Virus record (IMG/VR): IMGVR_UViG_3300032011_004028
Span: 10,896 to 74,895 of that record
Direction: 5' to 3' (one strand)
DNA from: a virus
Lineage: Duplodnaviria > Caudoviricetes
DNA length: 64,000 nt
Shown here piece by piece: positions 47,486 to 64,000 of the stretch (position 1 is the stretch's first letter; every line of letters starts with the position of its first letter). The notes beneath the pieces were generated by a model that saw only the letters and a list, made by a program, of their open reading frames with translations, had not been told where the DNA came from and made no database searches. A program made the position numbers and the translations under genes.

Positions 47486-48481
47486 TTACGTTCCGTGAAT
47501 TTTCATCATATCATCCATACTAAGCCTTCCTCCCTTTTCTGCGGCTTTCTTAGCGAGACTTATAGTTTCCCCCGGATTATCTAAACCTAAACGTTTAAGA
47601 TCGTCTTTTGTTGCTCCAACAAGCGATGTAGCTCCGTGCTCTCCCGCTTTAGCTTCAGATTTTTCAAGAGTTTCAGCGGCGCTTTTTGTCGACTCAAACC
47701 ACTCTACAAGCTTTTCTGGGTGTTCGGCGATATGATCTGGCGGCTTCTTCTCTGAATTCTGGATCATGCTCTTGTAATAACGCCCATAACCGAATAATTC
47801 AAGCTGGTAAAAACTCAAATTGACTAAAGGTTTCCCAAAAAATACATGAGCATTGTCTTCGCATAAATAAAAGATGTTAGTAAAGAACGCGGAGACGGAA
47901 ATCCTCTTTAAAAGAGGGGATTTAAATTTTTCTACCGACTTATTATATAACCCGATTAAACTTACAAGTTTTTGTTCCTCTAAATCCTCATATTCCTCAG
48001 CCGTAAACAAGCTCTCCCCTCCTTCAGTTTTCAAGGCATTGTAAATGTAATGTTCATTGATCCTACGTGAAGCATAGGCTTCGGCAGTAAATCCTATTAA
48101 CTCTTCTTTCTCGTGCTCTAGTTCTATTAGCTTGGTTCGTTGAATTTTAAGCTCCTCATTAGCTTGATTTACGTGGGCCTGAAGAAAAACTTTCTTTTTT
48201 GTATTTTCCAATCCTGCTATGTGTGATTTAGTATTTAAAACCTCTTTATTTTTTTCTTCGGTCCAAATTTCCTGTTCCAGAAGGTCGTCGATTCGTTGTT
48301 TTCTGGAGGGGAGACCTTCGTCAATAGCTTTTTTATAGAAGGCGCGATTTTTAATATCTAATTCAGCAGAATCAAAATTAGTAAAATGTTTAATCCTAAC
48401 TGTTTTATAATATTCAGACTGAACTAGGGAAAAACCCCTAAGTATTTCGGAAAAAGTAACCTTTAAGTCTATAGGGTCCAT
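47486..48481 (-). CDS. Putative tail assembly chaperone (pre-TMP)
   Basis: Helical and charged; directly upstream of TMP; TGATG coupling with the upstream ORF (GTG at 48484 is an alternative start). Confidence 0.55.
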   Translation of the reverse strand: MDPIDLKVTFSEILRGFSLVQSEYYKTVRIKHFTNFDSAELDIKNRAFYKKAIDEGLPSRKQRIDDLLEQEIWTEEKNKEVLNTKSHIAGLENTKKKVFLQAHVNQANEELKIQRTKLIELEHEKEELIGFTAEAYASRRINEHYIYNALKTEGGESLFTAEEYEDLEEQKLVSLIGLYNKSVEKFKSPLLKRISVSAFFTNIFYLCEDNAHVFFGKPLVNLSFYQLELFGYGRYYKSMIQNSEKKPPDHIAEHPEKLVEWFESTKSAAETLEKSEAKAGEHGATSLVGATKDDLKRLGLDNPGETISLAKKAAEKGGRLSMDDMMKIHGT

Positions 48482-49257
48482 CACCCATCTGTCTTTTCTT
48501 CCTCTTCGGCTTCTTCATCTAACTTAAGGGCTAGATCTACCATTTCTTGGAATTCTTTTTGAGTATTAGGCCTTCCCACGAACCAAAAGCTGACATAATA
48601 GGCGAACTTACGAGCTACGACAATCTCAAAGATATCGTCTCCCTCGTCTATGTCGTCATAGGTCTTTAATTTACTCTCAAGGTCGCCAGAACCAAAAAAT
48701 TCTACGTCTTTTCCGTCTTGTTCTGAGTGAGCCAAGTGAAGCATCCACCACAATATAACCTTGTTGCGAGCACGACTTTCCGCGGTTTCTTCATAAAGGC
48801 TGTCTTCCTCTAATTGGAGATCTCGCAGTTCCTTACGCGCAGGACGGACCTCTTTTTCGAGCTCTTTAAGCCTTTTCTTTTGGGAAGTGGTTCTTTTTTT
48901 CTCGGTGATGTCTAGGATTTTAGACTGCTCTTCATAGAAGTTTTTAAGCCTATCTGTAATAGCTTTATATTTCTTAGTATCTTGTTCGCTCCGGGTTCCC
49001 CCGTCGTTTTCAAAGCGTTTTTCAAGCAATGCTCGCGTTAAGAGCCCAGCTTTAATTCCTTCAGCTAGTTTTACTCCATAATATAACTCGGCCTCATCAG
49101 TCATAGCGCGAGTAGGTCGTCTTAAAAAGAATTTATGAGGGACCTCTTTTACTACATCTTTAGAAGTGGTTACTTCGCTACCGTCTTTTTTCTTTTCAAC
49201 GGACTTTTCTTGAACGGTCTCTTCCTTATTTACGGTGAACTCGTATATGCGCTTCAT
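48481..49257 (-). CDS. Putative tail assembly chaperone
   Basis: Coiled-coil-rich and acidic; lies between tube and TMP genes. Confidence 0.55.
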   Translation of the reverse strand: MKRIYEFTVNKEETVQEKSVEKKKDGSEVTTSKDVVKEVPHKFFLRRPTRAMTDEAELYYGVKLAEGIKAGLLTRALLEKRFENDGGTRSEQDTKKYKAITDRLKNFYEEQSKILDITEKKRTTSQKKRLKELEKEVRPARKELRDLQLEEDSLYEETAESRARNKVILWWMLHLAHSEQDGKDVEFFGSGDLESKLKTYDDIDEGDDIFEIVVARKFAYYVSFWFVGRPNTQKEFQEMVDLALKLDEEAEEEEKTDG

Positions 49258-49508
49258 TTTGGTTTATTATTGTTGTATTCGACGAATTTTTCAAAATATT
49301 CCTCCAAATCGCGAATTGTATCATTTCCTAAATCTAGGATTCTTTTACGGATTCTTTGGTGGGTTTCTTCGGGAATTTTGAGTCCATCGACCTGAAGATC
49401 TTCGAGGATAAAAAAGAATTGTTTATAGAGATTTGTTATTTTCCGCTTTGTTTGAAAAGCAAAAAAATTATTGATTATGTCCCTATCCTTTCCTTCTTCC
49501 TTAGACAT
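49254..49508 (-). CDS. Small hypothetical protein in the tail chaperone region
   Basis: 84 aa with its own GTGTAA motif and RBS; ATGA overlap with the next gene. Confidence 0.6.
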   Translation of the reverse strand: MSKEEGKDRDIINNFFAFQTKRKITNLYKQFFFILEDLQVDGLKIPEETHQRIRKRILDLGNDTIRDLEEYFEKFVEYNNNKPK

Positions 49509-49535
49509 GCCTTCTACCTTATATCCTACTATAAA

Positions 49536-49541
49536 TTACAC
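49536..49541 (-). promoter_or_regulatory. GTGTAA motif (candidate late promoter)
   Basis: CAAATAGTGTAATTT immediately downstream of the tube-gene terminator. Confidence 0.65.
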
Positions 49542-49550
49542 TATTTGAAC

Positions 49551-49579
49551 AAAAAAAATCCCCCAAAAGGGGGATTTTT
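49551..49579 (-). terminator. Rho-independent terminator after the major tail tube gene
   Basis: Minus strand reads AAAAATCCCCC-TTTT-GGGGGATTTTT followed by a T run. Confidence 0.85.
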
Positions 49580-49599
49580 GCAAAATATAAAACGGGACA

Positions 49600-50949
49600 T
49601 TAGAACCCTCTATTTGTAGTGATATTATTAAATCCACTCATAAAAATACCAACATCAGTCTGCTCAGGTCCACCAATCTGGTTACTGAAATCAAGAGTTA
49701 CTGATTTGTTATCACCGATAGAAGACGTAAACGATTCACTGTCAAGTTTCAGCTTACGCATTAAGATAGCCGCTACAACCGGTTTGTCGGCGGGAACATT
49801 GCAATTTCCTGCAGTCTTCATCTTGATTACAGCATCGTAAGATTCGTCACAATTAATATAGTCCGCTATACTGCCACTCGTCAAATCTGCCAACACGGCA
49901 TCGACGCTTAAACTTGAAGTAATTGGGAAGTCAACCACACGAGCGAAAGCGAATCGTGAGCCAAGTCTTTCAATTGGTGTACGACTAAGATCGAAACTTA
50001 CGTTATAGCTCTGGATATGAGCATCAGCAATGTCTGCACCATTAATAAGGTCTTCCGAGGTAGCACCTCCGTTCATCAAGGCTTCGTCAATATTAGCTGA
50101 CGCATCGTGAGCATAGAGACTTAGAGTAATGTCACCCGGACGAAGAGAGCTAATGTCAGAGCCAGCATCCATCGTAGCGTTTCCGCTATAAACCGGTAGA
50201 GCGACGTTCTCACTTACCTTCGTTCCATCGGTAGCGTTAACCGCTGGGCTTATTCCTGAGATATATTGAAGCTGCTCATGCACCCCATTTACAGTCCCGG
50301 TCCGGAAACCCGGATTTAGCGGAGACGCCCCAACTTGATTAACATTGTCACCACTTTTAATAGGAAGGTTTACAAAATTCATGTTTTGGCCTTCCACAGA
50401 AACACTTGCGGTTGGCAGGCCTCCTACAGAAGCTTCTGTGCTGTAAGAAGTAATAAACCCATTACCAATACCAATAATACTCTCGTAATTACCAGTCACC
50501 ATAAGATCGGCTGCATCTGCGCCTTCTTTAGTAGTTAGGACAAAGTAATCTTTTTGGTTTGCCGTAGTGGCTGAGTTAATAATACCTGAAATACAAGAGG
50601 TCATTTCCGGACCTATATTTGGCTCAGCGCCCGCCGTTCCTTGTGTAGCGCTCCCTGACATAGGAACTCCACTTGGGGTTATCTCAAATCCAAGGGCCTC
50701 CTCGTTACCAAAACCATTCACATAATAGCTCGTATCAAAACTGACAGTAGGAGTATCGATAATGATACGGTCAATAGCAGCTAGCTCACCGAACTGGTTA
50801 ACGTCCTGACGAGCAACGCTAAAACTATAGTTTGCGCTTTGAACACGTTGTAGAGCGACTACGTCTCCGGACTGGGTAAGGTCGCTGTCGTATGCAGCTT
50901 GACTGGCGTATACAGCCTGACTTTGGTAAATTACTCGATTTCTTGCCAT
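49600..50949 (-). CDS. Major tail tube protein with duplicated tube domain (T5 pb6-like architecture)
   Basis: 449 aa; two repeats RVQSANYSFSVARQDVNQFG...PTVSF and HIQSYNVSFDLSRTPIERLG...PITSSL. Canonical position after the neck genes, with its own promoter motif and terminator. Confidence 0.8.
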   Translation of the reverse strand: MARNRVIYQSQAVYASQAAYDSDLTQSGDVVALQRVQSANYSFSVARQDVNQFGELAAIDRIIIDTPTVSFDTSYYVNGFGNEEALGFEITPSGVPMSGSATQGTAGAEPNIGPEMTSCISGIINSATTANQKDYFVLTTKEGADAADLMVTGNYESIIGIGNGFITSYSTEASVGGLPTASVSVEGQNMNFVNLPIKSGDNVNQVGASPLNPGFRTGTVNGVHEQLQYISGISPAVNATDGTKVSENVALPVYSGNATMDAGSDISSLRPGDITLSLYAHDASANIDEALMNGGATSEDLINGADIADAHIQSYNVSFDLSRTPIERLGSRFAFARVVDFPITSSLSVDAVLADLTSGSIADYINCDESYDAVIKMKTAGNCNVPADKPVVAAILMRKLKLDSESFTSSIGDNKSVTLDFSNQIGGPEQTDVGIFMSGFNNITTNRGF

Positions 50950-50977
50950 GTTAAAAATTCCTTATTGTTATTTTAAT

Positions 50978-50983
50978 TTACAG
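50978..50983 (-). promoter_or_regulatory. CTGTAA variant of the late motif upstream of the tube gene
   Basis: TTAACTGTAAATT, then TAAGGA RBS and ATG at 50949. Confidence 0.45.
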
Positions 50984-51012
50984 TTAATATGTCTAAAAGT
51001 GAAATTATTTTG

Positions 51013-51885
51013 TTATTCTCGGGGTAATCTGACGTTACTAAGCTCAAAATCAATTAAAGTAGAATAAACATTGGGGTTAAACTTCCTTACTTCATTCTCT
51101 AAAACCCTGTCAAAACGGGACACGTTTACCTCTTCGATAAACATTCTATCCGCATAACCTTTGGTGCCTGCTATTCCTGTATAATTAAATTCATTATTTG
51201 TCCTAAAGTAACCAAAAGCATTAAAAGGCATATCAGACTCTTCAAATAAAGCTATTTCAGTTTTAACCTGATCGCGGAAAAGGCTACCTATAGCATCAAT
51301 ATCAAATTGGCTATCGGCAATCACTATGGCTCGAGCCTTAACCCATGTGGTATCTTGGCCGCCAAGAGCGAAAGGCTCATTGTAAGTTCCGTTAGCCTTC
51401 AGATAAACTACGGGGTAAGTTTTTGTATCTGGCTCTAATCCCGTGGGGACCACACTAGAAATTTGATTACGGTTAGTATATTGAGTTTGAAATAATAACT
51501 CGTCCTCTGTCCTACTAGTAAGAAAGGTATTGAAATCCTTTATGGCAAAACTTCCTGTGATCGGGTCCGTATTATCTCCGGACCAGTAGGTTCTTCCATT
51601 ATTGTAATCAATGGCATATAAACCAGTGGCTCCGCCTTCTCCCACGTTAACTAAATTGTCATTACTCCCAACGTACAATCCTGTGGGGATAGTGGCGCCA
51701 TCAATGGAGGAATCCGCAACAATTTGAGAGTAAGAACTGGCATAAGTTTCATATCCTGCAAAATCCTCAGAGACACTATAAAAACGACCAGTAGTATTCT
51801 GGTAAGCATCGCCTTTATCTAAGAGTTTGTTATCAAACCATAGAAGCAGGCTGGACATTACTTTATTATCAAATTGGGGCTTCAT
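51013..51885 (-). CDS. Putative tail terminator / tail completion protein
   Basis: Directly upstream of the tube gene; C-terminal YPVVYLK...EPFALGG...RAIVIADS...LIDFELS alpha/beta pattern. Confidence 0.5.
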   Translation of the reverse strand: MKPQFDNKVMSSLLLWFDNKLLDKGDAYQNTTGRFYSVSEDFAGYETYASSYSQIVADSSIDGATIPTGLYVGSNDNLVNVGEGGATGLYAIDYNNGRTYWSGDNTDPITGSFAIKDFNTFLTSRTEDELLFQTQYTNRNQISSVVPTGLEPDTKTYPVVYLKANGTYNEPFALGGQDTTWVKARAIVIADSQFDIDAIGSLFRDQVKTEIALFEESDMPFNAFGYFRTNNEFNYTGIAGTKGYADRMFIEEVNVSRFDRVLENEVRKFNPNVYSTLIDFELSNVRLPRE

Positions 51886-52481
51886 TTCAGTCGACGTTTA
51901 AATTTCATTAACATTGGGGTAATGTAGGGAGTAGGTGAAAAGTTGACGTAAGTAGAGCTAGATTTTCCCCCTTGAATAGCAAACCCAGACCTACTGTCTT
52001 CGCTTCTACCGAAAATGGTATTTGTAAAGTTTCCAATTCCTTTTTCTACCCCTTTAACCCAGCTCTGGCTTGTCCAAGGCAACGGCGTAACCCCATATAT
52101 TTCGGTCATAGAAGGGTAGCTTATAGGGAAATCCCATTGCAAAATATTCGCAGTTGATTTCCTTAACCTAGGTTGTTTTTGCACCTGAATAAAATCTTCA
52201 AACCCTTGACGAATTATTTCTACCGGTTTGGCAGATTGCCGGAAGCCTAAAAAAGCGAAAAAGTTTCCATACCCCCCCATAAGAGGACTATTCATTCCAG
52301 AAACCCCCTGTTCTATCTCTTTTGTAACAGGGTGACTATTTAATTCTGCAAGAAGTTCTTTCTTTAATTTATTTACTTTCTTTAACGCAGCTCCGTAAGC
52401 TATATTTTGCAGAGTCTTAGAGTTGGCAATTTTTTTCTTTAAAACCTGCTTTACTGTTAAGTTTTTAGGTTTGAGCTTCAT
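51882..52481 (-). CDS. Putative neck / tail completion protein (HK97 gp10-like position)
   Basis: Basic 199-aa protein in the head-tail joining block. Confidence 0.45.
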   Translation of the reverse strand: MKLKPKNLTVKQVLKKKIANSKTLQNIAYGAALKKVNKLKKELLAELNSHPVTKEIEQGVSGMNSPLMGGYGNFFAFLGFRQSAKPVEIIRQGFEDFIQVQKQPRLRKSTANILQWDFPISYPSMTEIYGVTPLPWTSQSWVKGVEKGIGNFTNTIFGRSEDSRSGFAIQGGKSSSTYVNFSPTPYITPMLMKFKRRLK

Positions 52482-52918
52482 TAAGTGGTAGCCTCCAAGT
52501 AATAAACATAATAAGTTTGACCTATAAAAAATCGCGCTCCATCAGAACTAACAACGTTAAATAAGCTGCCATTGATTCCTATAGAGTTAGTTTTACCTTT
52601 CTCAATGTAATTTTTACAATCTAGTTCAACTTTAATTCTTACGTCGCCCTTTTCTATCATAACTTTAAGTTCGTCTTGATACTCTAAGGGTTGATTTTCT
52701 TTGTAATTAATTATAGCTGTAAAGTCCTGACTAACAGGGGTATAGGTCACGGTCTCTTTCGGCGCGCTGTAGCCTGCGTAAATATTTTGATCAGCGGCCA
52801 AAGTTATTGTTTTCTTGGGATCTTTATTAACCGTGATCGTAGCCTTAAACGTGTCAAAATGATCGGCAAGAGCCGCCTTGAACGTTGTCTGAGCTGATGT
52901 TGGTATAAGCGAAGGCAT
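52481..52918 (-). CDS. Putative head-closure protein (beta barrel)
   Basis: 145 aa, beta-rich; position between adaptor and neck genes. Confidence 0.45.
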   Translation of the reverse strand: MPSLIPTSAQTTFKAALADHFDTFKATITVNKDPKKTITLAADQNIYAGYSAPKETVTYTPVSQDFTAIINYKENQPLEYQDELKVMIEKGDVRIKVELDCKNYIEKGKTNSIGINGSLFNVVSSDGARFFIGQTYYVYYLEATT

Positions 52919-53538
52919 TAATAAAAGTTAGGGGTTGTTCGGTTATAAGGGTACCCGTCGTAATCGTTTGAATAGAATCCAGCAACGGTATCATCTCCAG
53001 CTACCTGAACCGGTGAGGCCTTTCTTAGCTTGTAAGCGTTTATAAGATCAGTTAGTTCCATATATTCCTCCTTCTTTAAGGAGATGTAAGTCTTACTAAG
53101 TTCATTTTTGTTGATTTTCCTGACTCGTGATCCATCCGAAGCTACTTCTACAACGGGGTCGCTAGATGCGGCGCCGACAGTAGTTCTAATTTGCTGATCA
53201 TAATAATGAACTATATACATTTTTTTCAAAATAGAAGCTTCTTCTGGCTGAATAGCGGTAATATAAGGTTCGGCCACTCTCCCGCTGTCACTATCCGCAG
53301 ATAAACCTAAAGCTCCGGTCCCCTCATTGAAGGCTTGAGGCTCATAGTAAGGGCTAGCAAAAGATCCAGAAAACTCATAGGCATCCGGGCCATACTCAAC
53401 AATTTTGAAAGTAGTATTTATCCTGTTATTAAGCTCTCCCACATTACTTCTTATCCAAAAGGCAATAGCTGGAATAGAAATCGTCGACGGCTCTCCGAGT
53501 TCTCTGTAAATTTCATCTGCTATATCGACAATTTTCAT
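52918..53538 (-). CDS. Putative head-tail adaptor protein
   Basis: Helical N terminus IVDIADEIYRELGEP...; first gene of the joining block. Confidence 0.45.
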   Translation of the reverse strand: MKIVDIADEIYRELGEPSTISIPAIAFWIRSNVGELNNRINTTFKIVEYGPDAYEFSGSFASPYYEPQAFNEGTGALGLSADSDSGRVAEPYITAIQPEEASILKKMYIVHYYDQQIRTTVGAASSDPVVEVASDGSRVRKINKNELSKTYISLKKEEYMELTDLINAYKLRKASPVQVAGDDTVAGFYSNDYDGYPYNRTTPNFY

Positions 53539-53542
53539 CTTT

Positions 53543-53564
53543 TCTAAAATTACACTATTTTAGA
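53543..53564 (-). promoter_or_regulatory. GTGTAA motif in the loop of an 8-bp inverted repeat
   Basis: Minus strand reads TCTAAAAT-AGTGTA-ATTTTAGA; ATG at 53538. Confidence 0.65.
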
Positions 53565-53595
53565 GGCTAACAACCATTCTTTACTAGTTTTCTTT

Positions 53596-56500
53596 TTAGG
53601 CTTTGCCTTCATTCCTAGCTGATTTGCGTTTCTGAAAACGTTCCCATGCGGCTGTGTCTTCTACCACTAAAGGATCTACATCAGCTCTTTCTCCATAAAT
53701 TACATAATAACAATCGATTGTTTCGCCATCAGCAGCGCCGATTTTGATTTCACTTAAGGAGGTACTCACCACATATAAATGCTGGAAGGAGCCATTTGGT
53801 GTTAATTGAACCGTGATTGTACCCTCTCTTACTAAGCCGCTCCAGTAGTCGGGCATTGTAATAGTATCTGACTGAACTCGTCCTCTATGATAAACTCCAG
53901 CTTCAGGCCCTTCCAAGGAAGAGTGGACAAGCATCATGTTTTCCTTGGTGGGATGCTCTATTTCAAAATTCTTATAACCAGTGACATTAAGATTTACCGC
54001 ATAAATATATCTACCGGTACCTGCGGATGTGATATCTCCATCGACGTAAAGGTTGTGATTTCCACTTCCCTGTTGGTTAAAATAGGTTGTATAAGCGTTA
54101 TCACTGGACGATCCATTAAATCTAAATTGTCGATCATTGGTTCCAACAGGTTGATAGTCCATGTAGTAGGCTGTGCCGCTGTTACCATAGAGCCGAATCT
54201 TCCCGGCGTTTCCGTTTGTAGTGCCAATTTGTAGAGTCTGATCATTAGAAAGTGTAAGTCCGCCATTTATGGAGGTGTCCTCAAAATAGCAATTCTTCCA
54301 ATAATTACCTGAGCCGCCAAGATTGTAGGTTCCATTAGCAACTGGAAGAAAATGCGTATAAGAGTGTATGTATGTACCACTGCCATCAATTGCGAGCCTA
54401 GTGGTTTCATTCGTCATCAATCTTAAATGCCTACCACTAGAATTGTGTCCAAAATATGCCGCAGTTCCATCCATTGCCAGAAAAGTGGTATACCCATTTC
54501 CTAGAACAGCAAATTGACCAGCTCCTGAACCCGTAGGGGATATGTCGGTTGCGTCTTTAACCTGAAGTTTATTAGCTGGATCAGTTGTTCCTATGCCGAT
54601 ATTACCAACAGAATTAATAACCATGTGTGCTCCCATTACCGCACTTCCATTAGTTCTAGTCCTGAAGATCATGCTTGCGCCATATTGCCCGCTAGTCGCA
54701 TTATCTCTTGATCCCTCAATAGAGGCTAAATAGGTTCCGTTAGTATTATCTTGTGTCGCACCAAATGTAATTGCGCCACCAATACCAGCAGCTAAAGCCG
54801 AGTCATCTGCAACGTGGAGCTGTCCTTGCCACAACCCTTTATTTCCAGAGCCTGCAAATGCAGTTTTAGTCCCGCTAAAATATCCAGCTTGATTTTGTAC
54901 TGCCGCTCCTGCATTTCGAGTACCAGCGCCAACCATCAGATGAGCTAATGGATTATTTGTCCCGATGCCGACATTGCCGTCAGAAGCAATACGCATTCTC
55001 TCATCGGTAGCACCTAACCCGTCTGTCTTGAAACGAATATAGGTTTTTGCTCCTATGGTAGCACCGTATCCATCTACAACCGCATTAATTTCAAACTGAT
55101 CAGTACGGTCAGTACCTCCACCAGCCGCTCCCCACCAGTTAATATAACCCGTCTTGGGGTTATTTGACATAGTAATAGTTGGCCCTGTGGTATCGTATTG
55201 TCTGAGATGCAACAAAGTGCCCGGATTATTTGTCCCTATACCAACATTGCCTCCGCTAAGTATGGTCATCTTAACTGTACCCCCACCAAAACTCGAACCT
55301 GTCCAAAATTCTATACCCCCTTGACCATGGACTTTTAATCCAGCTGTACTGTACTTGACAGCTAAACCAGCACGGTTCCCGCCGGTGTCCGCGCAAATTA
55401 AATAAGGTTGCCAAGTATCCGCTGTTGTTGAAGCGTTTCTAATGTAAACAGTACCAGTACTATCTGAAGAATTCTTAAAGCATGAATGACCAGTGCTTGA
55501 CGAATAAACCGCTAGTCGCTCACTGCTAGAAGCTAAGGCAGCAGTAGTTCCTATCCCGACAACACCGGTAGAGGTAATGCATAAATGGTCATCAGCAGGG
55601 TTGTTGCCCCCCCACATTTTCATAATGGCATCGGAAGATGCATAACCGACCCCACCTTTCTGAACTCCAGCATTATAGAAAGTAACGTGAGCGTTTCTCG
55701 TACTGTTCGCGCTATCTAGCATCAATTGAACATCAGCAGAAGTGTTATCACTTTCTAACTTCAAGTATGCATTACCACTAGCTGGCTTTATATGCAAATT
55801 ACCGGTTGGCGCATCAGTCCCGATACCGACTGAGCCTCCTCCCGGTTGCAGAATTAAGTTCTTTGCGCCAACTCCATCTTGATACGAGTGGATATATGCG
55901 TTGTTTCCGTCCGTGTCTCTTGAGATAGCTAGCTTGTGTGTTGTACTGCCAACTAGGCCAATAACTAACTGAGAATTTCCCGTGTAACTGGCGGTTGGAT
56001 CGGTGCTTGCAGAAGCTATATTAAGCCCAAGTGAGTCGGGCGCATCAGTGCCTATACCAACTATACCCCCTTTAACCACTACATCTGGTGCGGTGCTCCC
56101 CGAGTTACCAGCAGTTACCAGATATATTTTTGACGGGTTATTCCCTAAGTTTGCTGCGTAAGCGTTCGCTTTTAAATAAAGATTCCCGCCGCTTCCATAA
56201 ATATTTGCATAGGTATAAGCGCTCCCCATTGCTATACCGCTCAGATCAGGGAAGGTCATCTTGTAGTTTGTGTTTGCACTATCAACTAATGTTTGATTAG
56301 CCACTCGAATTTCACCATCCCCCATTATAGCAAATAAATCACTACTGGCTTGGTTGCGAATCAATAACGAATAATCAGCGCTATCCCCGCCGCCCTCTAT
56401 GTAGGCTCCCCATCCCACCGTACTCGTATTTACAAATCGCCCAATAAAATTGTGAGTTTTTGATGATTTTACATCAAACAAAATTGCTGGATCATTAGTA

Positions 56501-57858
56501 CCTATACCGACATTGCCGTTGCTCAACATTGATACTTTTTGCGCAGTGCCGTAACCGAAACGTAATGCCGCATTACCGTCCGCCCATATATTAAAATAAT
56601 CTCCCCCAGATAAATCTCCATTAACTCCATCCAGCCAAATGACTGCTCCATTAGAATACTCTCCAAGAGAAACTGAGCTAGATCCTTCCCATACCATTAA
56701 CTGCTGTGATGGCGCAGTAGTCCCGATGCCGACATCGCCGCCGGAGAGAATTGTAATGTGATTCGTGTTGTTCGTCCCGATGTACATCTTACCAGCTTCA
56801 CGATTCCTGATGTAGGTGTCACTCTCATATGCAATAATATCTGTTCCGTCCCCCGAACCTGAACCAGTGGTGGTATTCGTTATATGAACATTTGCATGAC
56901 CTGACGCATTTGCATGCAAGTGCAACACTCTCCCATAAGAACTAGTTGGCGTAGCAGTCCCGATGCCAACATTGCCGTCTCTTGTAAGGGACATTATATC
57001 AGATTTAGTACCACCAAAATTACGCCTAAAAGTTAAACCATCTACCCCAGATATACCTATATAATAACCTTTGTCTTCTGCTGACCTCTCTATGTAAATT
57101 CCGTTTTCAGCGGAAGTACTGGTTTGTTTTATTGCTAGGGCTGCGGTTCCCAAGTCATTAGCAGCGTCACCAAATGAGCCTCCAATATGCAACTTTGCTT
57201 TAGGATCAGTTTGGTCTATGCCAACGTTACCCTCTTGGTCAATATGCAACCTTGTGCCATAACCCGTAGCTCCCCGTGTCCAAAATTGTAGATCACCATA
57301 ATTATTAGTATGATCGGTGCATTTTGCGGCAATCAAGGCTGTCGAACTTCCACCAACCGCATCAGCGAAGTTTATTCTAATATAATTACCAGCTGTAGTG
57401 TTAGAATTAGACAACCAGAGAGAAGAGGCTCCAGAGGTTATATCGGTATAAGAATCTTGAACGTCAAAAGACCCTCCACTGGTCGTTGTTGATCTTACAT
57501 CTAATAGAACCGCTCCCGGCGAAGCAGTACCGATACCGACTTTTCCGACAGAAGTAATTGTCATGTGATCTGTACCCTGCTTATCAAAATGCAAGGTAGC
57601 ATTAGTGTACAATCTAGTTATATAAGCGTGTTCAGCATTTTCGGAATCGTACTTAATTTCTAATGCTGAATTACTCGCCTTACCTCTTCCTAATTTTAAA
57701 GCCGCTACATAGTTGTTTCCACTCGGGGAAGTCCCCCCATAAAAATCTAATTGCCTTTGGGAGGCGACGTATGCGTTAAAGAGAGATCCCGGTAAAGTGG
57801 TTCCCACGCCGATGTTACCTCTTAAAATTTTAAATGCTGGTATAGTTCTATCTGCCAT
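53596..57858 (-). CDS. Tail fibre / adhesin with about 12 GxVGIGTxxP repeats and a C-terminal chaperone-like domain
   Basis: Repeated GNVGIGTxxP; C-terminal KNFEIEHPTK...LVHSSLEGPEAGVYHRG...TVQLTP typical of phage fibre C termini. Confidence 0.8.
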   Translation of the reverse strand: MADRTIPAFKILRGNIGVGTTLPGSLFNAYVASQRQLDFYGGTSPSGNNYVAALKLGRGKASNSALEIKYDSENAEHAYITRLYTNATLHFDKQGTDHMTITSVGKVGIGTASPGAVLLDVRSTTTSGGSFDVQDSYTDITSGASSLWLSNSNTTAGNYIRINFADAVGGSSTALIAAKCTDHTNNYGDLQFWTRGATGYGTRLHIDQEGNVGIDQTDPKAKLHIGGSFGDAANDLGTAALAIKQTSTSAENGIYIERSAEDKGYYIGISGVDGLTFRRNFGGTKSDIMSLTRDGNVGIGTATPTSSYGRVLHLHANASGHANVHITNTTTGSGSGDGTDIIAYESDTYIRNREAGKMYIGTNNTNHITILSGGDVGIGTTAPSQQLMVWEGSSSVSLGEYSNGAVIWLDGVNGDLSGGDYFNIWADGNAALRFGYGTAQKVSMLSNGNVGIGTNDPAILFDVKSSKTHNFIGRFVNTSTVGWGAYIEGGGDSADYSLLIRNQASSDLFAIMGDGEIRVANQTLVDSANTNYKMTFPDLSGIAMGSAYTYANIYGSGGNLYLKANAYAANLGNNPSKIYLVTAGNSGSTAPDVVVKGGIVGIGTDAPDSLGLNIASASTDPTASYTGNSQLVIGLVGSTTHKLAISRDTDGNNAYIHSYQDGVGAKNLILQPGGGSVGIGTDAPTGNLHIKPASGNAYLKLESDNTSADVQLMLDSANSTRNAHVTFYNAGVQKGGVGYASSDAIMKMWGGNNPADDHLCITSTGVVGIGTTAALASSSERLAVYSSSTGHSCFKNSSDSTGTVYIRNASTTADTWQPYLICADTGGNRAGLAVKYSTAGLKVHGQGGIEFWTGSSFGGGTVKMTILSGGNVGIGTNNPGTLLHLRQYDTTGPTITMSNNPKTGYINWWGAAGGGTDRTDQFEINAVVDGYGATIGAKTYIRFKTDGLGATDERMRIASDGNVGIGTNNPLAHLMVGAGTRNAGAAVQNQAGYFSGTKTAFAGSGNKGLWQGQLHVADDSALAAGIGGAITFGATQDNTNGTYLASIEGSRDNATSGQYGASMIFRTRTNGSAVMGAHMVINSVGNIGIGTTDPANKLQVKDATDISPTGSGAGQFAVLGNGYTTFLAMDGTAAYFGHNSSGRHLRLMTNETTRLAIDGSGTYIHSYTHFLPVANGTYNLGGSGNYWKNCYFEDTSINGGLTLSNDQTLQIGTTNGNAGKIRLYGNSGTAYYMDYQPVGTNDRQFRFNGSSSDNAYTTYFNQQGSGNHNLYVDGDITSAGTGRYIYAVNLNVTGYKNFEIEHPTKENMMLVHSSLEGPEAGVYHRGRVQSDTITMPDYWSGLVREGTITVQLTPNGSFQHLYVVSTSLSEIKIGAADGETIDCYYVIYGERADVDPLVVEDTAAWERFQKRKSARNEGKA

Positions 57859-60800
57859 TATAAATCCTTATGATACTGCTGTTGCCATTCCCATTACGTG
57901 GTAACTTAGGCTACCGGTGAAACTTCCGTTAGCAGTTGTGCTTAATTTTAATTGTATCGTAAATGTATCGGTACTTGGGTCTACTATCTTCGACATAATT
58001 AAATCTGTATTAGTATTATCAAATTCACTAATTATTAGCCCCGGTTCTTGGTATCCATCGCCTCCATTTTGTACAAAGTATTCTCCGACAAAAGCTACAG
58101 CGCTATGACTACTCCAGTCTCCGGTTATAAATAATTTTACATGACATGCACGGTGATTGGCTAAATTAATTGTAAGTGCCGTGGTATAACTTGACCCATT
58201 CATCGCTACATCTTTGTATCCCATCCAGTTACCGTTGCTGGCACTTCCAACTCTAAGGTCGCCGTCGACGTGAAGTTTAGCAAGTGGAGCATTAGTGGAA
58301 ACACCCATTCGATCAGCGCCGCCATCAGTAAATAGAAGGTAATCGTCATTATTACTTTCCACCCTGAAATCTACGTCGCCGCTGGCGTCATTAATAACGA
58401 CGGCGCTCCCATTATCCTGTATAGAAGAATTCCCAATCGTATCACCATCAGTCCACTTAGTGATATAGTTAGCGCTACCAGAGCCATCTACCGCTCCAGA
58501 ACCGATTGATGTCTCTATAACATTACCACTAGAATCAACGGAAAGTTTGTAAGCAGCGGTTCCTGTATGAGTTCCCGAGCCGTAACTACCCAATGTTAAC
58601 TTTCTACTAGTGGTATTTATTGAGAGGGCAGTAGAAGGACTGCTTCCAACTGCTATAGAAAAAGTTGCATCTCCTCCGCGAATACGCCCTTGCATGGTGC
58701 CCCCACCATAAAACATAATAGCTGGTAGCTTGCTTCCTCCAGTAGAATCTTCATCGTTGATCGCTAATGCACAAGCGTTATCGCCATCATCTGAATTGCC
58801 ACTAATAGTAAGCAGACTCCCCGGGCTATCTGTTCCTATGCCTACATAACCAGTAGTCTTCTTAATAACAAGACAATTAGCTACGCCGCTCTGTCTAATA
58901 TTGAAATCTCCAGCGGCAGGATAACCACTGTATAAAATCCAGCCTACGTCCCCAGCTGCTCCAGCATTTAACTGAAGCCCAACACGACCCGTAGTACTCT
59001 GGAAATTAGGCTCCAACACTCCGGCTTTCCAGACATGAAGCAGTTGTCCCGGAGAAGCTGTCCCTATTCCAACGTTCCCATTTCCCTTTATGTCAAAAAG
59101 GTTATTATTGCTTGATCTAAAGGTGGCCACATAATCTGAGGCAGAAGTACTTCCTATATTAACATATAAACCATCCCCGTTTGAAGTGTTGCTTTGGGTT
59201 ATCTCTGCCGCGTATACAGTTGAACTAGCAGGGGTAACTACATCAAGCATAGCAGATGGCGCAGTTGTCCCGATGCCGACATGACTATTTGAAAAATAAA
59301 CGGAGTCTACATCAGCCCCACCCTCTATTCTAAATCTTTCTACCGAGGAGTTACTAGCGTTATCTGTATACCAAATCTGGTCTTGAGCATCGTCTGATAC
59401 GTAGGTGATATTTCCACCCGCACCTTGGTTGGTGATATTAAAGAAAAAAGCATTACTTTGAAGTTTGAGTTGGGTGTCATCAGAATTATTCGCGCTTTTT
59501 ACTTGTAAAGTTGTCGCTCCGGAACCCCTTACGTCCAATTGATAAGCTGGCGCAGTAGTCCCGATGCCGACCTTGCCGTCACCCCTAATAATCATTTTTA
59601 GTGTTGGGCTAGAAGTCCCAACAGCATTATTTGTATCAAAGCGTAAATCAGTATTGGCTGCACTCGTGGGTTGTGCGTAAACTTGAGCTCCCCTTGCCGA
59701 TACAGTATTACCAGATGTGGTAGAAGTCCAAATTATACCAGAATATTTGCTTGTTTGCTGATTACCAAAATACAAAGATGCATAACTAGCGTTTTGTGTA
59801 GTTATTTCTAAACCTCTATGCCAGCCGCCATCTCTTACTACATCACCTTCAAAATACCCGCCACCATCGACATGCAAAAGTTCAGAAGGGGCCGTTATTC
59901 CTATACCGACATTGCCGCCTGAAGCTATACGCATTCTTTCGGCCGGAACTCCCGCCTCGGGCTTTGTCCAAAACTGAAGATCACCACCACTGTCATCACC
60001 AGCGTTTGAATCAGATGTAACTACCGTTGAAATAATTTGAGCTATCCTGCTTCCAATCGTTGAGTTGGGGTTTACGTGGTTTGCATTGGCCGTATTGATA
60101 AAAGCAAGCTGACCCACTCTATGGGCATTCGTGTCTGAAGAAGCGCTAAGATTCGTTATGCCACCATCAAAGTCCCCTGTTCCCGCTGTGCCCCTTACCT
60201 CTAAAACTTGTCTATTAGACGCATAACTAGTTAGATTCGTAGCATTAATTACAACTCCGTAAGCGTGATTGTATACAATCGAGTTCCCAATCGTATCACT
60301 ATCAGTCCATTTCGAAATGTAATTGGCAGTACCACTGCCATCTACCCCAGAAATCTCACTTAAAGTTTTCCAATCCAAACCGGAGCCGGTAGTGGTTAAA
60401 ACTTGTCCATTAGTCCCAGCGCTATTATTAGTGTCTAAAATTGTTGTAGCTTTTAAACTACTGTTGATAGTTGTTGGATAACCAATAGCTACATCCCCAT
60501 CGCCCTGTATTTGGATTACGCTCTGGACGCTTTGACTGCCTAAGTAGCCGTTGTCAGTAACCCTAATATTAGATGAACGTATATAGTTGTTATAAATGTA
60601 GGAGTTACCAACAGCTACCGCAGTGCTGAATGTGGCTGTCCCTCCATCCAACTGAAACTCTTCTGTAGAACCGTTCGTGCCATAAATAGCAAACCGACTT
60701 GTCCCGTCCACCAACCCAAACCAACGGCTTTTGGCTCCACCACCAGCATCAGCATCGGTGACTTGAAACAACGGCGAAGCAGAAGAACGGCTTACTTGAA

Positions 60801-63800
60801 TTGTTGAATTGGCCGTCAGCGCACCGCTGAATGTGGCTGCCCCTGTTGGGGCTATCGTCAGCAAGTGGTTTGACCCCCAATGACCAAGCGTTAACAAGTT
60901 GGCGTCAGACCCATCTCCATTCCACTTATACCCAATGTACCCACAGTTCTTATTATTCCCCTCCTTGCCAACTACTAATATATTAGTCTGCCCGCTGGTA
61001 ATGTTTGCCGTGTACGCCTCCAGAGAATGAACGTATGTACCTGATGAACTATTATCTATTGCAAGTGTTGGGGCATTGGCTAACCCTGTTCCTGCTAATG
61101 TAGCCGTAGTACCCGTCAGCGCACCACCGAACGTGGCTGCCCCTGTTGGTGAAAGCGTTAACGGGTAATTCCAAGAAATTGTATCATCCGCACTCCCCCC
61201 TGTTACGGCTGTCCTTAAATAAATTGTGCCATCATCTTGCCAGACATTTGATGCACCGCCAGCACCTACCTTTTTCCATAACCCACTTGCGTTCAGGTAA
61301 GAGTTTTCCTGTACCCCTATGTAAGAGCTATTACCCACTACGGCTGATTGGTTAGCCCCTATTGCGAGTTGGGTTATGCCACTATACCAAGTGTTCAACC
61401 CACCCGTAAACCCAATCTGTGCATCACCACTAAACTTAGCAGTAGTCCCCGTCAGCGGACCATTGACGGTCACGGCGCCCGCGAATGTGGCTACGCCAGC
61501 CGCCGATATAGTCAGCCTAGTCGCCGCTGATGTACCAAATATTATATCTCCCGCTTCATAATTATATATATATCCAGTTGAACCAGACAGTTGCATCTGA
61601 AACCCGTCGCCAGTCGCTGCACCTGTTGTTGAATTACAAAGCTGTAAACAAGCTAATGAATTATTGTATATAGATAGGGGTCTACTAGGCGCAGTTGTCC
61701 CGATGCCGACATTTCCTGCAGAAGTAATCCGCATTCTTTCTGTCGGAGCCACATTAGTCGTGCCATCTTTGGTAGCAAAATATAAATCTCCTGTCTCAAA
61801 AGAAGTCCTTGAGGTAACAATCTGGCCGATAACCGAATGCGAATAAGTGGAACCGTAAAATTGGTCAAAACCAATCTCCATTCTTCTTCCAACCGCGTTA
61901 GAACTAACCGCTGCTAATTTAAGAGTATTAGAGCCTCCTATTTGAGTTCCCGGTGGAATCGCTTCTGAAACCATTAACTGAGCTACGGGCGCAGTAGTCC
62001 CGATACCGACTTTGCCTGATGCATCAATACGCATACGTTCAGTCGGGGTATAAACCGTATTCACAGTTTCCCCTGTGTCTCCATAGAAAACGTGCGCCCC
62101 GTTCAACTGACGGTAGACGGCAGGAGTTGTAGAATTGAGTGTCTTATAAGCACTTGTAGTGTTGGTGTTGTTAACAACCCTAGCTCCCGACGTAATGATA
62201 ATGTTGCTACCGCTATTTGCCACACCTATACAAGCCGATGCGTAGTCTGCGTTGTTTACATCTGCGTTATTGAGGTAGAATGCTAATCCCTGTGTCCAAG
62301 CAGTATCTTCCTCTATATTAACAGTTGCCCCCGCATCAGTTAACGAGGCTGAAGTTGTTCGTATATCCAGTTTACAAAGCGGCGCAGTAGTGCCGATGCC
62401 GACATTTTGTAAAAAATAATTACTATTAACTGCCGAAATTCTAGCTTGAGCTACCCCGCTATTAGCCCGCACATAAATACTACCGTGACTTGACTCTTGG
62501 CCGAGGGAGACAAGTTTAACCGTGTTACCAGAGTGAACCAAAGAGATTTCATCGACGTTACTGCCAGTAGATTTGACGGATAGTTTAGTAGTGGGCGCAT
62601 CAGTCCCGATTCCGACATTGCCGTCGCTTTTAAAATAAGCCGCAAGAGTAGAGCTGTTAACGTATATCGAAAGATGAGAAGTTGCTTTTAATACGGCATA
62701 CGACGAATCATTGCCATAAATATCCAACCATGTAGTTCCTGCTTTTTGAAACCTTAGTTCTCCACCAGAAACTCCGTCAATATCTACAACTCCCCAACCA
62801 ACCGATGCATAGACATCAAGGTGAACACTTGGCGCAGTAGTCCCAATGCCGACTCCAGTACCATTTTTAATATATAGATCATTACCTGCTGAGCTATCAG
62901 TGCCTGTTGTAAATCCTATATCTCCCGTGGACTTACTATAAATTTGCCCTCTTAGCGCGCTACCCGCATTATTAAAAAATTGAATAAAGGAATAATCATC
63001 AGCAGACCTTGCCCTAAGAGCAAAAGCATTTGCGCCAGAATCTGCTGTAACAGTTAGAGGGGCGGCTGGATTAGTATTTCCGATACCAACTTTGCCGTCA
63101 GCGGCTATACGCATATATTCCGTACCGCCACCCGTCAGAAATGTTATAAATCCTGTAGTATTTGCAGCTTTAAGTCTTAATTCGTTCCCTGTTTCTCTTG
63201 TTACTTGATGGCTACTACCCCCGAATCTAATTCCTTTACCCTCATCTACAAATATATAGTCGCCTCTTACGTCAAGTTTATAAGCGGGATTTTCAGAGCC
63301 AATACCCACTTTATCATTACTAATAGTTAAAACAGAGCTGTTGTTATCCCAGAATTGAGTTCTTAGATTTGTGGTATCGGAAACGATACGACCCACTATA
63401 GTTTTATCGAGCCGTCTCCAAATTAGCGCGGATGAATTTCCCGTGTTAGTTGGAGCATCAATATAAGTAGTATTGGCTACATGAAGTATTCCATCTGGCG
63501 CAGTAGTCCCGATGCCGACACTTCCTGTAGTCGGAGCAATTACCAGTCTTTCACTTGCGGCAACATCACTTCCTTCACTTATGGCGAAATAATTATTGGG
63601 AGCCGTAGAATGTCCTATCACCCACCTAGCCGCAGCAGTTTCAAAAAATTCTAATTGCGGTTTATCATCAGTGCTGGAAATGCGTATGTTACCACCGTAT
63701 ACGTGAAGTTTAGCTCCCGGCGCGGTTGTCCCGATGCCGAGTTTAGAACCCTTCAGCACCATATTGTTCACACCGCCATTATCACTTCTGAAATAAACAT

Positions 63801-63912
63801 CATCTGCATCAAAATAAACATCAGATGTTCCAGCATACCCAAACCTGTAGGAACTACCGTTAGCGTTTGCTATTTGCAATAGTGAATCTGGCGCATTAGT
63901 CCCTATGCCGAC
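55808..63912. repeat. Dispersed 23-bp repeat GGCGCAGTAGTCCCGATGCCGAC (coding strand GTC GGC ATC GGG ACT ACT GCG CC = VGIGTTAP)
   Basis: Exact copies at 56711, 59549, 63497. One mismatch at 59258, 61688, 61988, 62381, 62831. Two to four mismatches at 63890, 55808, 56948, 62594, 63719, 57518. Confidence 0.9.
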
Positions 63913-64000
63913 TTTACCGGCAGGGTCAATACGCATTCTTTCGACTGGTGCGGTAGCTGTAGCCCCACCTAGTGCTTTAGTGGCAAAAGCAAGTTCCCCG
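57868..64000 (-). CDS. Giant tail fibre / adhesin with at least 15 GxVGIGTxxP repeats; 5' end beyond the window
   Basis: The frame stays open from 63936 to the window edge (...GELAFATKALGGATATAPVERMRI). Repeated ERMRI/GIGTTAP units and a beta-sandwich-like C-terminal tip. Confidence 0.85.
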   Translation of the reverse strand, partial: GELAFATKALGGATATAPVERMRIDPAGKVGIGTNAPDSLLQIANANGSSYRFGYAGTSDVYFDADDVYFRSDNGGVNNMVLKGSKLGIGTTAPGAKLHVYGGNIRISSTDDKPQLEFFETAAARWVIGHSTAPNNYFAISEGSDVAASERLVIAPTTGSVGIGTTAPDGILHVANTTYIDAPTNTGNSSALIWRRLDKTIVGRIVSDTTNLRTQFWDNNSSVLTISNDKVGIGSENPAYKLDVRGDYIFVDEGKGIRFGGSSHQVTRETGNELRLKAANTTGFITFLTGGGTEYMRIAADGKVGIGNTNPAAPLTVTADSGANAFALRARSADDYSFIQFFNNAGSALRGQIYSKSTGDIGFTTGTDSSAGNDLYIKNGTGVGIGTTAPSVHLDVYASVGWGVVDIDGVSGGELRFQKAGTTWLDIYGNDSSYAVLKATSHLSIYVNSSTLAAYFKSDGNVGIGTDAPTTKLSVKSTGSNVDEISLVHSGNTVKLVSLGQESSHGSIYVRANSGVAQARISAVNSNYFLQNVGIGTTAPLCKLDIRTTSASLTDAGATVNIEEDTAWTQGLAFYLNNADVNNADYASACIGVANSGSNIIITSGARVVNNTNTTSAYKTLNSTTPAVYRQLNGAHVFYGDTGETVNTVYTPTERMRIDASGKVGIGTTAPVAQLMVSEAIPPGTQIGGSNTLKLAAVSSNAVGRRMEIGFDQFYGSTYSHSVIGQIVTSRTSFETGDLYFATKDGTTNVAPTERMRITSAGNVGIGTTAPSRPLSIYNNSLACLQLCNSTTGAATGDGFQMQLSGSTGYIYNYEAGDIIFGTSAATRLTISAAGVATFAGAVTVNGPLTGTTAKFSGDAQIGFTGGLNTWYSGITQLAIGANQSAVVGNSSYIGVQENSYLNASGLWKKVGAGGASNVWQDDGTIYLRTAVTGGSADDTISWNYPLTLSPTGAATFGGALTGTTATLAGTGLANAPTLAIDNSSSGTYVHSLEAYTANITSGQTNILVVGKEGNNKNCGYIGYKWNGDGSDANLLTLGHWGSNHLLTIAPTGAATFSGALTANSTIQVSRSSASPLFQVTDADAGGGAKSRWFGLVDGTSRFAIYGTNGSTEEFQLDGGTATFSTAVAVGNSYIYNNYIRSSNIRVTDNGYLGSQSVQSVIQIQGDGDVAIGYPTTINSSLKATTILDTNNSAGTNGQVLTTTGSGLDWKTLSEISGVDGSGTANYISKWTDSDTIGNSIVYNHAYGVVINATNLTSYASNRQVLEVRGTAGTGDFDGGITNLSASSDTNAHRVGQLAFINTANANHVNPNSTIGSRIAQIISTVVTSDSNAGDDSGGDLQFWTKPEAGVPAERMRIASGGNVGIGITAPSELLHVDGGGYFEGDVVRDGGWHRGLEITTQNASYASLYFGNQQTSKYSGIIWTSTTSGNTVSARGAQVYAQPTSAANTDLRFDTNNAVGTSSPTLKMIIRGDGKVGIGTTAPAYQLDVRGSGATTLQVKSANNSDDTQLKLQSNAFFFNITNQGAGGNITYVSDDAQDQIWYTDNASNSSVERFRIEGGADVDSVYFSNSHVGIGTTAPSAMLDVVTPASSTVYAAEITQSNTSNGDGLYVNIGSTSASDYVATFRSSNNNLFDIKGNGNVGIGTASPGQLLHVWKAGVLEPNFQSTTGRVGLQLNAGAAGDVGWILYSGYPAAGDFNIRQSGVANCLVIKKTTGYVGIGTDSPGSLLTISGNSDDGDNACALAINDEDSTGGSKLPAIMFYGGGTMQGRIRGGDATFSIAVGSSPSTALSINTTSRKLTLGSYGSGTHTGTAAYKLSVDSSGNVIETSIGSGAVDGSGSANYITKWTDGDTIGNSSIQDNGSAVVINDASGDVDFRVESNNDDYLLFTDGGADRMGVSTNAPLAKLHVDGDLRVGSASNGNWMGYKDVAMNGSSYTTALTINLANHRACHVKLFITGDWSSHSAVAFVGEYFVQNGGDGYQEPGLIISEFDNTNTDLIMSKIVDPSTDTFTIQLKLSTTANGSFTGSLSYHVMGMATAVS
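60813..61149. repeat. 37-bp direct repeat pair (PTGAATFxGALT), 300 bp apart
   Basis: 60813-60849 versus 61113-61149 match at 34/37 positions; a degenerate third copy lies near 61450-61500. Confidence 0.85.

Follow-up and report, generated by a model that had tools for sequence, protein, structure and literature searches.

Two giant tail-fibre genes of an uncultured virus contain the same short DNA word many times over, with the same synonymous codons, and the question raised by this locus is what keeps that word constant between modules that differ widely. The locus lies in virus record IMGVR_UViG_3300032011_004028 (Caudoviricetes), of which positions 10,896 to 74,895 were analysed (hereafter the window, 64,000 nt of a record of an uncultured marine phage of siphovirus type; coordinates refer to this stretch). 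The fibre region consists of two adjacent genes on the minus strand, as are all of its features described below: gene A (53596..57858, 1420 codons) and gene B (57868..63999, more than 2043 codons, with the 5' end beyond the window). A sequence-only reading of this DNA had seen about 27 GxVGIGTxxP repeats and a shared 23-bp box in the two genes, and had proposed that the boxes are sites at which adhesin modules are exchanged. Our analysis points in the same direction. We consider, with a probability of roughly 0.78, that the boxes are in-phase homology linkers for ordinary homologous recombination between fibre segments, akin to the fibre motifs of T-even phages. The role of the modules as receptor-binding adhesins is putative.

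The translated genes contain 28 [VLI]G[IV][GDS] motifs, 13 in gene A and 15 in gene B, and 26 of them are of the VGIGTxxP type, in agreement with the earlier count. The canonical box, the 23-mer GTCGGCATCGGGACTACTGCGCC, occurs in three exact copies, at 56711..56733 in gene A and at 59549..59571 and 63497..63519 in gene B. Five further copies carry one mismatch (59258, 61688, 61988, 62381 and 62831). The sequence-only reading had the positions of the exact copies and the number of one-mismatch copies right. Within three mismatches, 13 copies were found, all on the minus strand, and none appeared in 100 shuffles. The boxes are direct repeats in the same codon phase, lie in-frame inside a continuous open reading frame (ORF), and are neither palindromic nor hairpin-forming. 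A 14-mer scan found no repeats longer than the box in the fibre genes. A second frequent allele, GTCGGCATCGGGACAAATAATCC, encodes VGIGTNNP at 54950..54972. The copies with ordinary A/T wobble bases that had been named earlier are real, and the listing of translated motifs places these decayed boxes at 58823..58845, 59051-59073 and 59888-59910. The centre of gene B is free of boxes over 600 codons.

Codon choice inside the motif departs from that of the remaining parts of both genes. The Val codon is GTC in 16 of 24 boxes, compared with 13% in the rest of genes A and B, and the Ile codon at the third motif position is ATC in 14 of 25 (12% elsewhere in the two genes). Likewise, GGG is used for the second Gly in 15 of 26 boxes (20% elsewhere) and GCG for the Ala at the seventh position in 13 of 15 (17% elsewhere), and GGC, a rare choice in the remainder of both genes, is also dominant within the motif. 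With a stricter motif set, the binomial P per codon ranges from 1e-3 to 2e-6. The sequence-only reading had claimed that these synonymous sites are fixed beyond the need of the protein. The codon enrichment over the rest of the genes upholds the excess, but not the fixation, since the wobble bases of the boxes in the window are enriched at 52-72%. The increase in third-position identity is limited to the motif, and the conserved flanking residues Leu (+33), Val (+39) and Ile (-18) take ordinary codons.

The peptide encoded by the box has a counterpart of known structure. In phmmer searches, gene B (P0002) matches the Bdellovibrio fibre Bd2133 (PDB 8OND_A) in two stretches with E=1.4e-9, and gene A (P0001) matches 8OML_A weakly (E=0.0017). 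The units ERMRI...GxVGIGTTAPxxxLHV of the window align to the same units of Bd2133, and the boxes align to its VGINTAAPLQKL and VGIGATAPTAKL, where the capping-loop motif V-G-(x)-G/N-small-x-x-P-x-x-x-L is present. In crystal structures of the Bd2133 type, this motif forms capping loops at the edges of intertwined trimeric β-helix segments (Caulton et al. 2024, PMC10769870). The modules between the boxes are paralogues with 27-40% identity to each other, which corrects the earlier view that the flanking modules are unrelated. Judged from these alignments, the modules are most probably divergent copies of one trimeric β-helix segment, and the box would be the capping loop that forms their structural boundary. 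Since the box is such a boundary, box-to-box chimeras should fold. A single-sequence AlphaFold2 model of gene B residues 454-866 had a predicted local distance difference test score (pLDDT) of 34, too low to read the fold. No Peptidase_S74 match, which would mark a C-terminal S74 intramolecular chaperone, was found in Pfam for the window fibre genes, and these fibres would be of a non-S74 type.

The box is also present in other phages. Exact GTCGGCATCGGGACTACTGCGCC was found in 74 other marine viral or metagenomic stretches (19 from IMG/VR and 55 from metagenomes), and the runs that contain the window's own sequence are marine or viral metagenomes. Box-sharing or comparison stretches from these sources are referred to by L numbers; all relatives are metagenome assemblies. 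The exact tracts between boxes of different contigs are 23-41 nt long, and the canonical boxes of the window have 111-113 such partners each. The boxes at 56711 and 59549 each have 113 partners with at least 23 nt of exact identity, and the latter has 34-36-nt exact tracts common to L005 and L016. The VGIGTNNP allele at 54950 has 45 partners at the same identity threshold in other contigs, which arose although this allele was not used as a search pattern.

We collected 370 distinct boxes from the box-sharing stretches, with the exact seed pattern excluded. In this pool, the homogenised zone extends from -9 to +20 of the Val codon and reads GAC GGC AAT GTC GGC ATC GGG ACT ACT GCG, where each codon takes 62-86% of its amino acid. 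The conserved DNA of the wider pool, GAC GGC AAT plus the 23-mer, thus spans about 32 nt. The Ile, Leu and Val residues conserved 6-13 codons from the box use ordinary codons here as well. The two Gly codons are specific to their positions, with GGC in 231 of 370 boxes at one Gly and GGG in 276 of 370 at the other (chi-square P=7.5e-100). This position specificity excludes codon bias, class effects of rare codons and residual identity from a recent duplication.

Comparison with the 74 stretches places exchange at the boxes. The blastn matches consist of 25-55-nt islands on boxes and of module-length matches with 70-97% nucleotide identity that end on boxes. Among high-scoring segment pairs (HSPs) of at least 90 nt, 23 of 50 ends lie within 12 nt of a box, compared with 6.3 expected (P<1e-4). 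Close relatives of modules B_03, B_04, B_08, A_02 and A_06 (74-87% amino acid identity) sit in different contigs next to unrelated modules. Module B_03 (63299..63519) shares 84-85% of nucleotides (87% of amino acids) with L005 and L164, in which its neighbours are unrelated. The exact box at 63497 is the left junction of this common module; base by base, the 60 nt upstream are unrelated, the box is identical at 23/23 positions, and the sequence downstream is about 90% identical. Module B_04 is 74% identical to L013 at the amino acid level. Module B_08 with its flanking boxes at 61988-62010 and 62381-62403 (61988..62406) is found in L003 and L187 only, at 86% nucleotide identity (81% amino acid identity to L003), and its HSP terminates 0 and 3 nt away from these boxes. 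Module A_06 (56072..56519) is shared with L012 (84% of nucleotides, 80% of amino acids), and A_02 (57230..57546) with L015 (75% at both levels), where homology stops at both boxes. In the base-by-base comparisons, the transitions at boxes are sharp, from unrelated sequence through an identical box to about 90% identity, or in reverse order.

Contig L177 combines modules that resemble both fibre genes of the window. Over 90 nt upstream of the L177 box, identity is 77% to gene A at the partly decayed box 56039..56061 and 28% to gene B; over 90 nt downstream, it is 97% to gene B at the one-mismatch box 61688..61710 and 24% to gene A. This three-way junction connects a gene-A-like to a gene-B-like module exactly at the box and recurs in three assemblies. 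When the fibres of the pool were cut from box to box, 523 modules were obtained, which formed 105 families at 70% nucleotide identity. These families reveal 49 independent context switches, in which the same family has different neighbours. Over these switches, the mean identity climbs from 0.25-0.35 where the neighbours are not shared to 0.92 in the first half of the box, and is 0.8-0.9 along the module in common. A second, independent pool of boxes, introduced below, yielded 672 modules and 97 switches with the same identity step at the box. One old intragenic duplicate bounded by boxes (74% nucleotide identity) was observed in L015.

Homogenised box DNA with sharp limits, mosaic fibres and breakpoints at the boxes are therefore observed features of this gene pool. 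Relatives differ from the window in module order, and identity at the box does not extend into the flanks. The proposal that the boxes are exchange sites within and between fibres and phages is supported by the HSP ends, the three-way junction and the 49 context switches. Among the sharers, only L016 is a genomic relative of the window phage, with 77-85% amino acid identity in adjacent genes; the others have tail-tube proteins with 26-29% identity, or nothing recognisable in adjacent genes. The box-sharing genomes also differ considerably in size: one of 47.5 kb has an estimated completeness of 100%, and one of 64.8 kb has 92%. By CheckV estimates, the IMG/VR records G001 and G002 (loci L003 and L012; 77.7 and 61.9 kb) are only 48-49% complete, so that some box-sharing phages would have genomes of about 130-160 kb.

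The DNA form of the box differs between lineages. A degenerate scan of IMG/VR for DNA encoding VGIGTTAP gave a sample of 140 sites with diverse wobble bases, and the wobble set of the window occurred in 0/140. The DNA form of the box is thus a property of the gene pool, not of the peptide. Loci of other lineages with many motifs each have their own homogenised box form, and several of them favour codons that are rare in their own genes (GTC in 9/11 boxes of L114 vs 6%, and in 8/9 boxes of L096 vs 3%). The second dialect pool uses the 23-mer GTTGGTATAGGTACAACAAGTCC for the same peptide and was found as exact copies in more than 120 viral stretches (L036 and L193-L311, from IMG/VR). This dialect is A/T-ending, whereas that of the window is G/C-ending and runs counter to the codon usage of its genome, and the boxes of L036 use the commonest codons yet are homogenised. 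One phage type of this dialect carries four GTTGGTATAGGTACAACAAGTCC copies at fixed spacings of 219, 525 and 261 nt in many samples. Module matches between loci number 183 and 1284 within the two pools vs 5 across them, and none of module length was found between the window and 117 loci of other dialects.

We regard one tentative extension as possible and somewhat doubtful. The DNA form of the box could be a heritable compatibility code, and each dialect a set of otherwise unrelated phages that trade fibre segments with each other and hardly with other dialects. Under such a code, what maintains the dialect would be second-order selection, or selfish behaviour of mobile segments, and not a need of the protein. 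If so, a synonymous signature of 23-32 nt would predict which environmental phages share a pool of host-range genes, and the box would be a ready-made in-frame connector for fibre engineering. Three other candidates for the box conservation were rejected. A universal DNA or RNA signal is incompatible with differing dialects, GC-biased conversion as a general rule with the A/T-ending second pool, and an overlapping antisense gene with the location of the sole antisense ORFs (53887-54234 and 53994-54266), which lie away from boxes.

Exchange by homologous recombination at the boxes would proceed as follows. The fibres are chains of segments of 60-150 residues, each opening with the capping-loop peptide G-N/K-V-G-I-G-T-x-x-P. 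The window phage and no fewer than 70 other contigs keep the DNA of this peptide as one sequence of 23-32 nt in constant codon phase, with codons that are otherwise the rarest in these genes. An encounter between two fibre genes, in a co-infected cell or inside a single genome, would then allow strand annealing or homologous recombination at the box to generate an in-frame chimera, whose junction would land on a structurally neutral boundary. A crossover between any two boxes keeps the reading frame, because the boxes are all directly repeated and have the same phase. An equal crossover would swap the distal part of the fibre, two crossovers would swap a segment, and an unequal crossover would delete or duplicate segments. 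Swaps, insertions, duplications and losses of segments could in this way arise inside one fibre, from one fibre to the other, and across unrelated phages. Restriction of exchange to boxes with long exact identity would continually re-spread the canonical sequence, and unused boxes would decay towards A/T-ending codons. The box may be kept for exchange, through second-order selection, or merely by exchange, and both readings fit. Tracts of 23-41 nt lie in the range usable by RecA-dependent and annealase-dependent pathways, and we infer that the recombination is general rather than site-specific. De Paepe et al. 2014 (PMC3945230) document that relaxed homologous recombination by phage annealases gives rise to mosaicism.

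Several results weigh against this mechanism. A recombinase of any kind was not found among nearly all ORFs of the window (PHROGs and Pfam), and RecA, RecT, ERF and a convincing Sak4 were not found in four box-sharing viral records, two of which are 92-100% complete; AAA_24 gave only a sub-threshold match there. About half of the HSP ends lie away from boxes, some at other motifs and some inside modules. Among the junctions involved in switches, only 14/87 are present in at least two samples, and some junctions could be assembly chimeras. The link between canonicity and exchange is weak, with 3.26 vs 3.07 canonical wobbles of 4 when boxes next to exchanged modules were tested (P=0.03). The boxes also coincide with structural segment boundaries, and selection for foldable chimeras could alone place surviving breakpoints there. 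Finally, reads and contigs of four marine runs from different studies were placed on the fibre region, and no supported rearranged allele of the window phage, as sought on the proposal of the sequence-only reading, was found in them, where contigs cannot reveal rare variants. Every apparent joint had a shorter side of at most 36 nt. Such joints are not evidence of rearrangement, since a side of this length is the box alone and maps to several places.

In all four runs, the module order of the window was reproduced by error-free k=31 contigs that span many boxes. Since no recombinant of the window phage was caught, exchange may be rare on ecological time scales, and nothing suggests programmed or rapid switching. 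At least four marine metagenome runs from different studies have contigs that match the fibre region (53500-63999) without a single difference, piecewise over as much as 1.5 kb, and eight runs contain at least half of its sampled words. The window phage is a widespread, stable population.

The alternative that survives best assumes illegitimate or random recombination, of which only products joined at capping loops survive, and regards the DNA identity of the boxes as a passive by-product of hitch-hiking or short gene-conversion tracts. We consider it unlikely. This model is in line with a box that encodes the capping loop bounding β-helix segments, with the weak correlation between canonicity and exchange, and with the lack of a recombinase among the genes found in the window and the four box-sharing records. 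However, random joining would not keep exact tracts of 23-41 nt with position-specific synonymous codons across otherwise unrelated phages. In 49 cases of the first pool and 97 of the second, the join at the box is seamless and keeps the register, and module sharing is almost confined to contigs of the same dialect. Selection for foldable junctions surely contributes to the location of the surviving breakpoints.

Selection on translation or mRNA is a much poorer candidate than boundary selection. The box codons, which are the rarest or next-rarest for their amino acids in the window's pool, could cause a pause at segment boundaries that aids co-translational folding and trimerisation, with no tie to recombination. 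However, of the two equally rare codons GGC and GGG, each is fixed at a different Gly, and the box of the second pool (L036) is homogenised with the commonest codons. A pause also leaves the breakpoints at boxes unexplained, and we consider this explanation very unlikely.

Recent tandem duplication of one unit, with very fast divergence of the module bodies and the box as residual identity, was the alternative named in the sequence-only reading. All modules are indeed paralogues (27-40% amino acid identity), and one old intragenic duplicate is present in L015. However, conserved residues 6-13 codons away from the box show no conservation at their synonymous sites, the module bodies are at random nucleotide identity (0.25-0.35), and the same box occurs in otherwise unrelated phages, which leaves this origin scarcely credible.

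A dedicated site-specific system with the box as its site, similar to a shufflon, an integron or an invertase, was the label that the sequence-only reading had attached to the locus, and we give it equally little weight. The many copies of one short site inside variable surface-protein genes recall the shufflon of plasmid R64, in which inverted sfx repeats and the tyrosine recombinase Rci switch a gene for a surface-fibre tip within a clone. Unlike the sfx repeats, the boxes are direct, and they form no palindrome. The window ORFs gave no match to a serine or tyrosine recombinase, no alternative arrangement or switching was found in the four metagenomes, and the site differs between lineages. 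An integron comprises IntI, palindromic attC sites and promoterless cassettes, whereas no integrase was found among the window ORFs and the box is in-frame and non-palindromic. For a diversity-generating retroelement, no reverse transcriptase was found among the window ORFs, nor repeats longer than the box in the fibre genes.

Assembly chimerism is very unlikely as the source of the mosaic. In its favour, the box is a repeat common to many co-occurring contigs at which an assembler could jump, and box edges are the exact points at which many contigs of the four runs part (as loose ends or short-sided joints). Against it, several junction arrangements recur in independent samples and assemblies, and k=31 contigs from four studies have the module order of the window. 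The modules in common show the divergence expected of evolved recombinants (70-97% identity) and are not identical, and the box, at 23-41 nt, is shorter than the reads and final k-mers of usual assemblers.

Homologous recombination at short linkers has precedents in cultured phages. In T-even phages, recombination occurs between conserved motifs, the His boxes of gp37 and the glycine-rich motifs of gp38 (Tetart et al. 1996, 1998, as related in Trojet et al. 2011, PMC3157838). In those phages, short motifs recur in fibre or adhesin genes and bound variable segments, and exchange in or near the motif yields chimeric fibres with no site-specific enzyme. Recurrence of the motif between phages and breakpoints at the motif are both seen in the window and the 74 stretches. 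Unlike the T-even case, the two genes hold about 27 motif copies instead of a few, and the peptide is a different one, a β-helix capping loop. The synonymous sites are also homogenised against codon usage in lineage-specific DNA forms, and the evidence from the window is comparative only.

Conserved DNA motifs of 20, 44 and 95 bp flank the receptor-binding domains of tailspikes of Escherichia coli phages, and a role for them as recombination hotspots was proposed (Pas et al. 2023, PMC10408124); they were used again in bioRxiv 10.64898/2026.05.12.724579. These motifs resemble the box in that the DNA itself is conserved from one phage genus to another where exchangeable fibre or spike parts begin and end. 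In the coliphages, one domain is flanked near the N-terminal anchor, whereas the linker of the window is iterated along the whole shaft and any segment is exchangeable. The mosaic adhesive trimer (MAT) fibres of Bdellovibrio and the S74-type phage fibres (PMC10769870; PDB 8OND, 8OML) are a further parallel, with sequence homology to Bd2133, the same ERMRI...GNVGIGTxAPxxxL repeat and a chimeric architecture. Unlike the fibres of the window, those of Bdellovibrio are bacterial surface fibres, and conservation of the loop DNA and box-to-box exchange are not described there. Phage single-strand-annealing proteins (PMC3945230) offer a plausible enzymology, since they recombine co-resident phage genomes whose homology is short or diverged; unlike in annealase systems, no Rad52-like, RecT, ERF or Sak4 gene was found in the window or the four box-sharing records. 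The principle of motif-mediated fibre exchange is already known. A full-text literature search for the VGIGT-type peptide motif found no phage paper. The capping-loop linker, its about 27-fold iteration along the shaft, the strong and sharply bounded homogenisation, and the dialects that track segment sharing appear undescribed.

Tail fibres set the host range of phages, and their natural diversification is mostly inferred from a few cultured coliphages. Here it becomes countable in uncultured marine phages, as hundreds of segments in public data are visibly exchanged at one fixed DNA word; this exchange may affect host range. As a defined sequence, the box lends itself to tests in which it is recoded and the protein stays the same. 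It is also a bioinformatic marker by which communities of fibre-segment exchange can be recognised in viromes, and it supplies a natural rule for designing fibre chimeras that stay in frame. For annotation, it advises caution, because intragenic synonymous conservation need not point to an RNA element or an overlapping gene and can instead be the mark of a recombination substrate.

Other recurrent motifs are present in gene B. A different conserved DNA island, encoding ATFGGALTGTTATL, lies in the box-free centre at 61097..61137, and 30-41 nt of it are 90-97% identical in L003, L011, L012 and L016. Islands on the peptide (P)TGAATF(G/S)GALTG occur at 61097-61150, 60826-60850 and 60625-60640, and homology ends cluster there; this island may be a second type of linker. 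A third motif, DGSGxANYIxKWTDxDTIGNS, is found at 60281..60375 with a second copy at 58409-58500. The two copies have 14-16-mers in common, including shared 14-mers between 58430 and 60284. HSP ends fall at this motif (60275-60281 and 58409), where module-length matches to L012, L151, L184 and L002 begin or end.

The fibre genes themselves have distant relatives among cultured phages. Gene A matches PHROG 18345, 9942, 17490 and 28536, and gene B matches the PHROG tail-fibre families 9942 and 18345. Both show 24-32% amino acid similarity to fibres of the cyanophages S-TIM5, S-PRM1 and S-CRES, of pelagiphages and of a roseophage, and tblastn matched gene A to fibres of cyanophages, pelagiphages and Flavobacterium phages. 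No cultured relative at the DNA level was found for the fibre region by megablast against 50,697 phage records. The C-terminal part of gene A (window 53596-54600, residues ~1087-1420) contains the tip domain at residues ~1267-1400. This tip is without a Pfam family and matches PHROG 17490 and 28536; it is 43-49% identical to unannotated or 'tail fiber-like' proteins of the Synechococcus phages S-H68 and S-B05 and of Flavobacterium phages, and 75% identical in L016. At 57800-58188, the end of gene B, a 9-nt gap and the start of gene A form one block conserved in L002 at 72% nucleotide identity. Since this block is conserved, the two-gene layout is common to L002 even where the inner segments differ.

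The window has a G+C content of 37-47% and encodes, besides the fibres and according to PHROGs and Pfam, a ribonucleotide reductase, a dUTPase, a dCMP deaminase, a sigma-like factor, and glycosyltransferases of a glycosylation operon. Its tail genes include a tape measure of 2311 residues and lambda-like tail-tip genes, among them a J-like protein of 2257 residues. Between the tape measure and the fibres, seven consecutive ORFs (47486-53538) are without a PHROG or Pfam match, and one of them encodes a putative tail tube of 449 residues.

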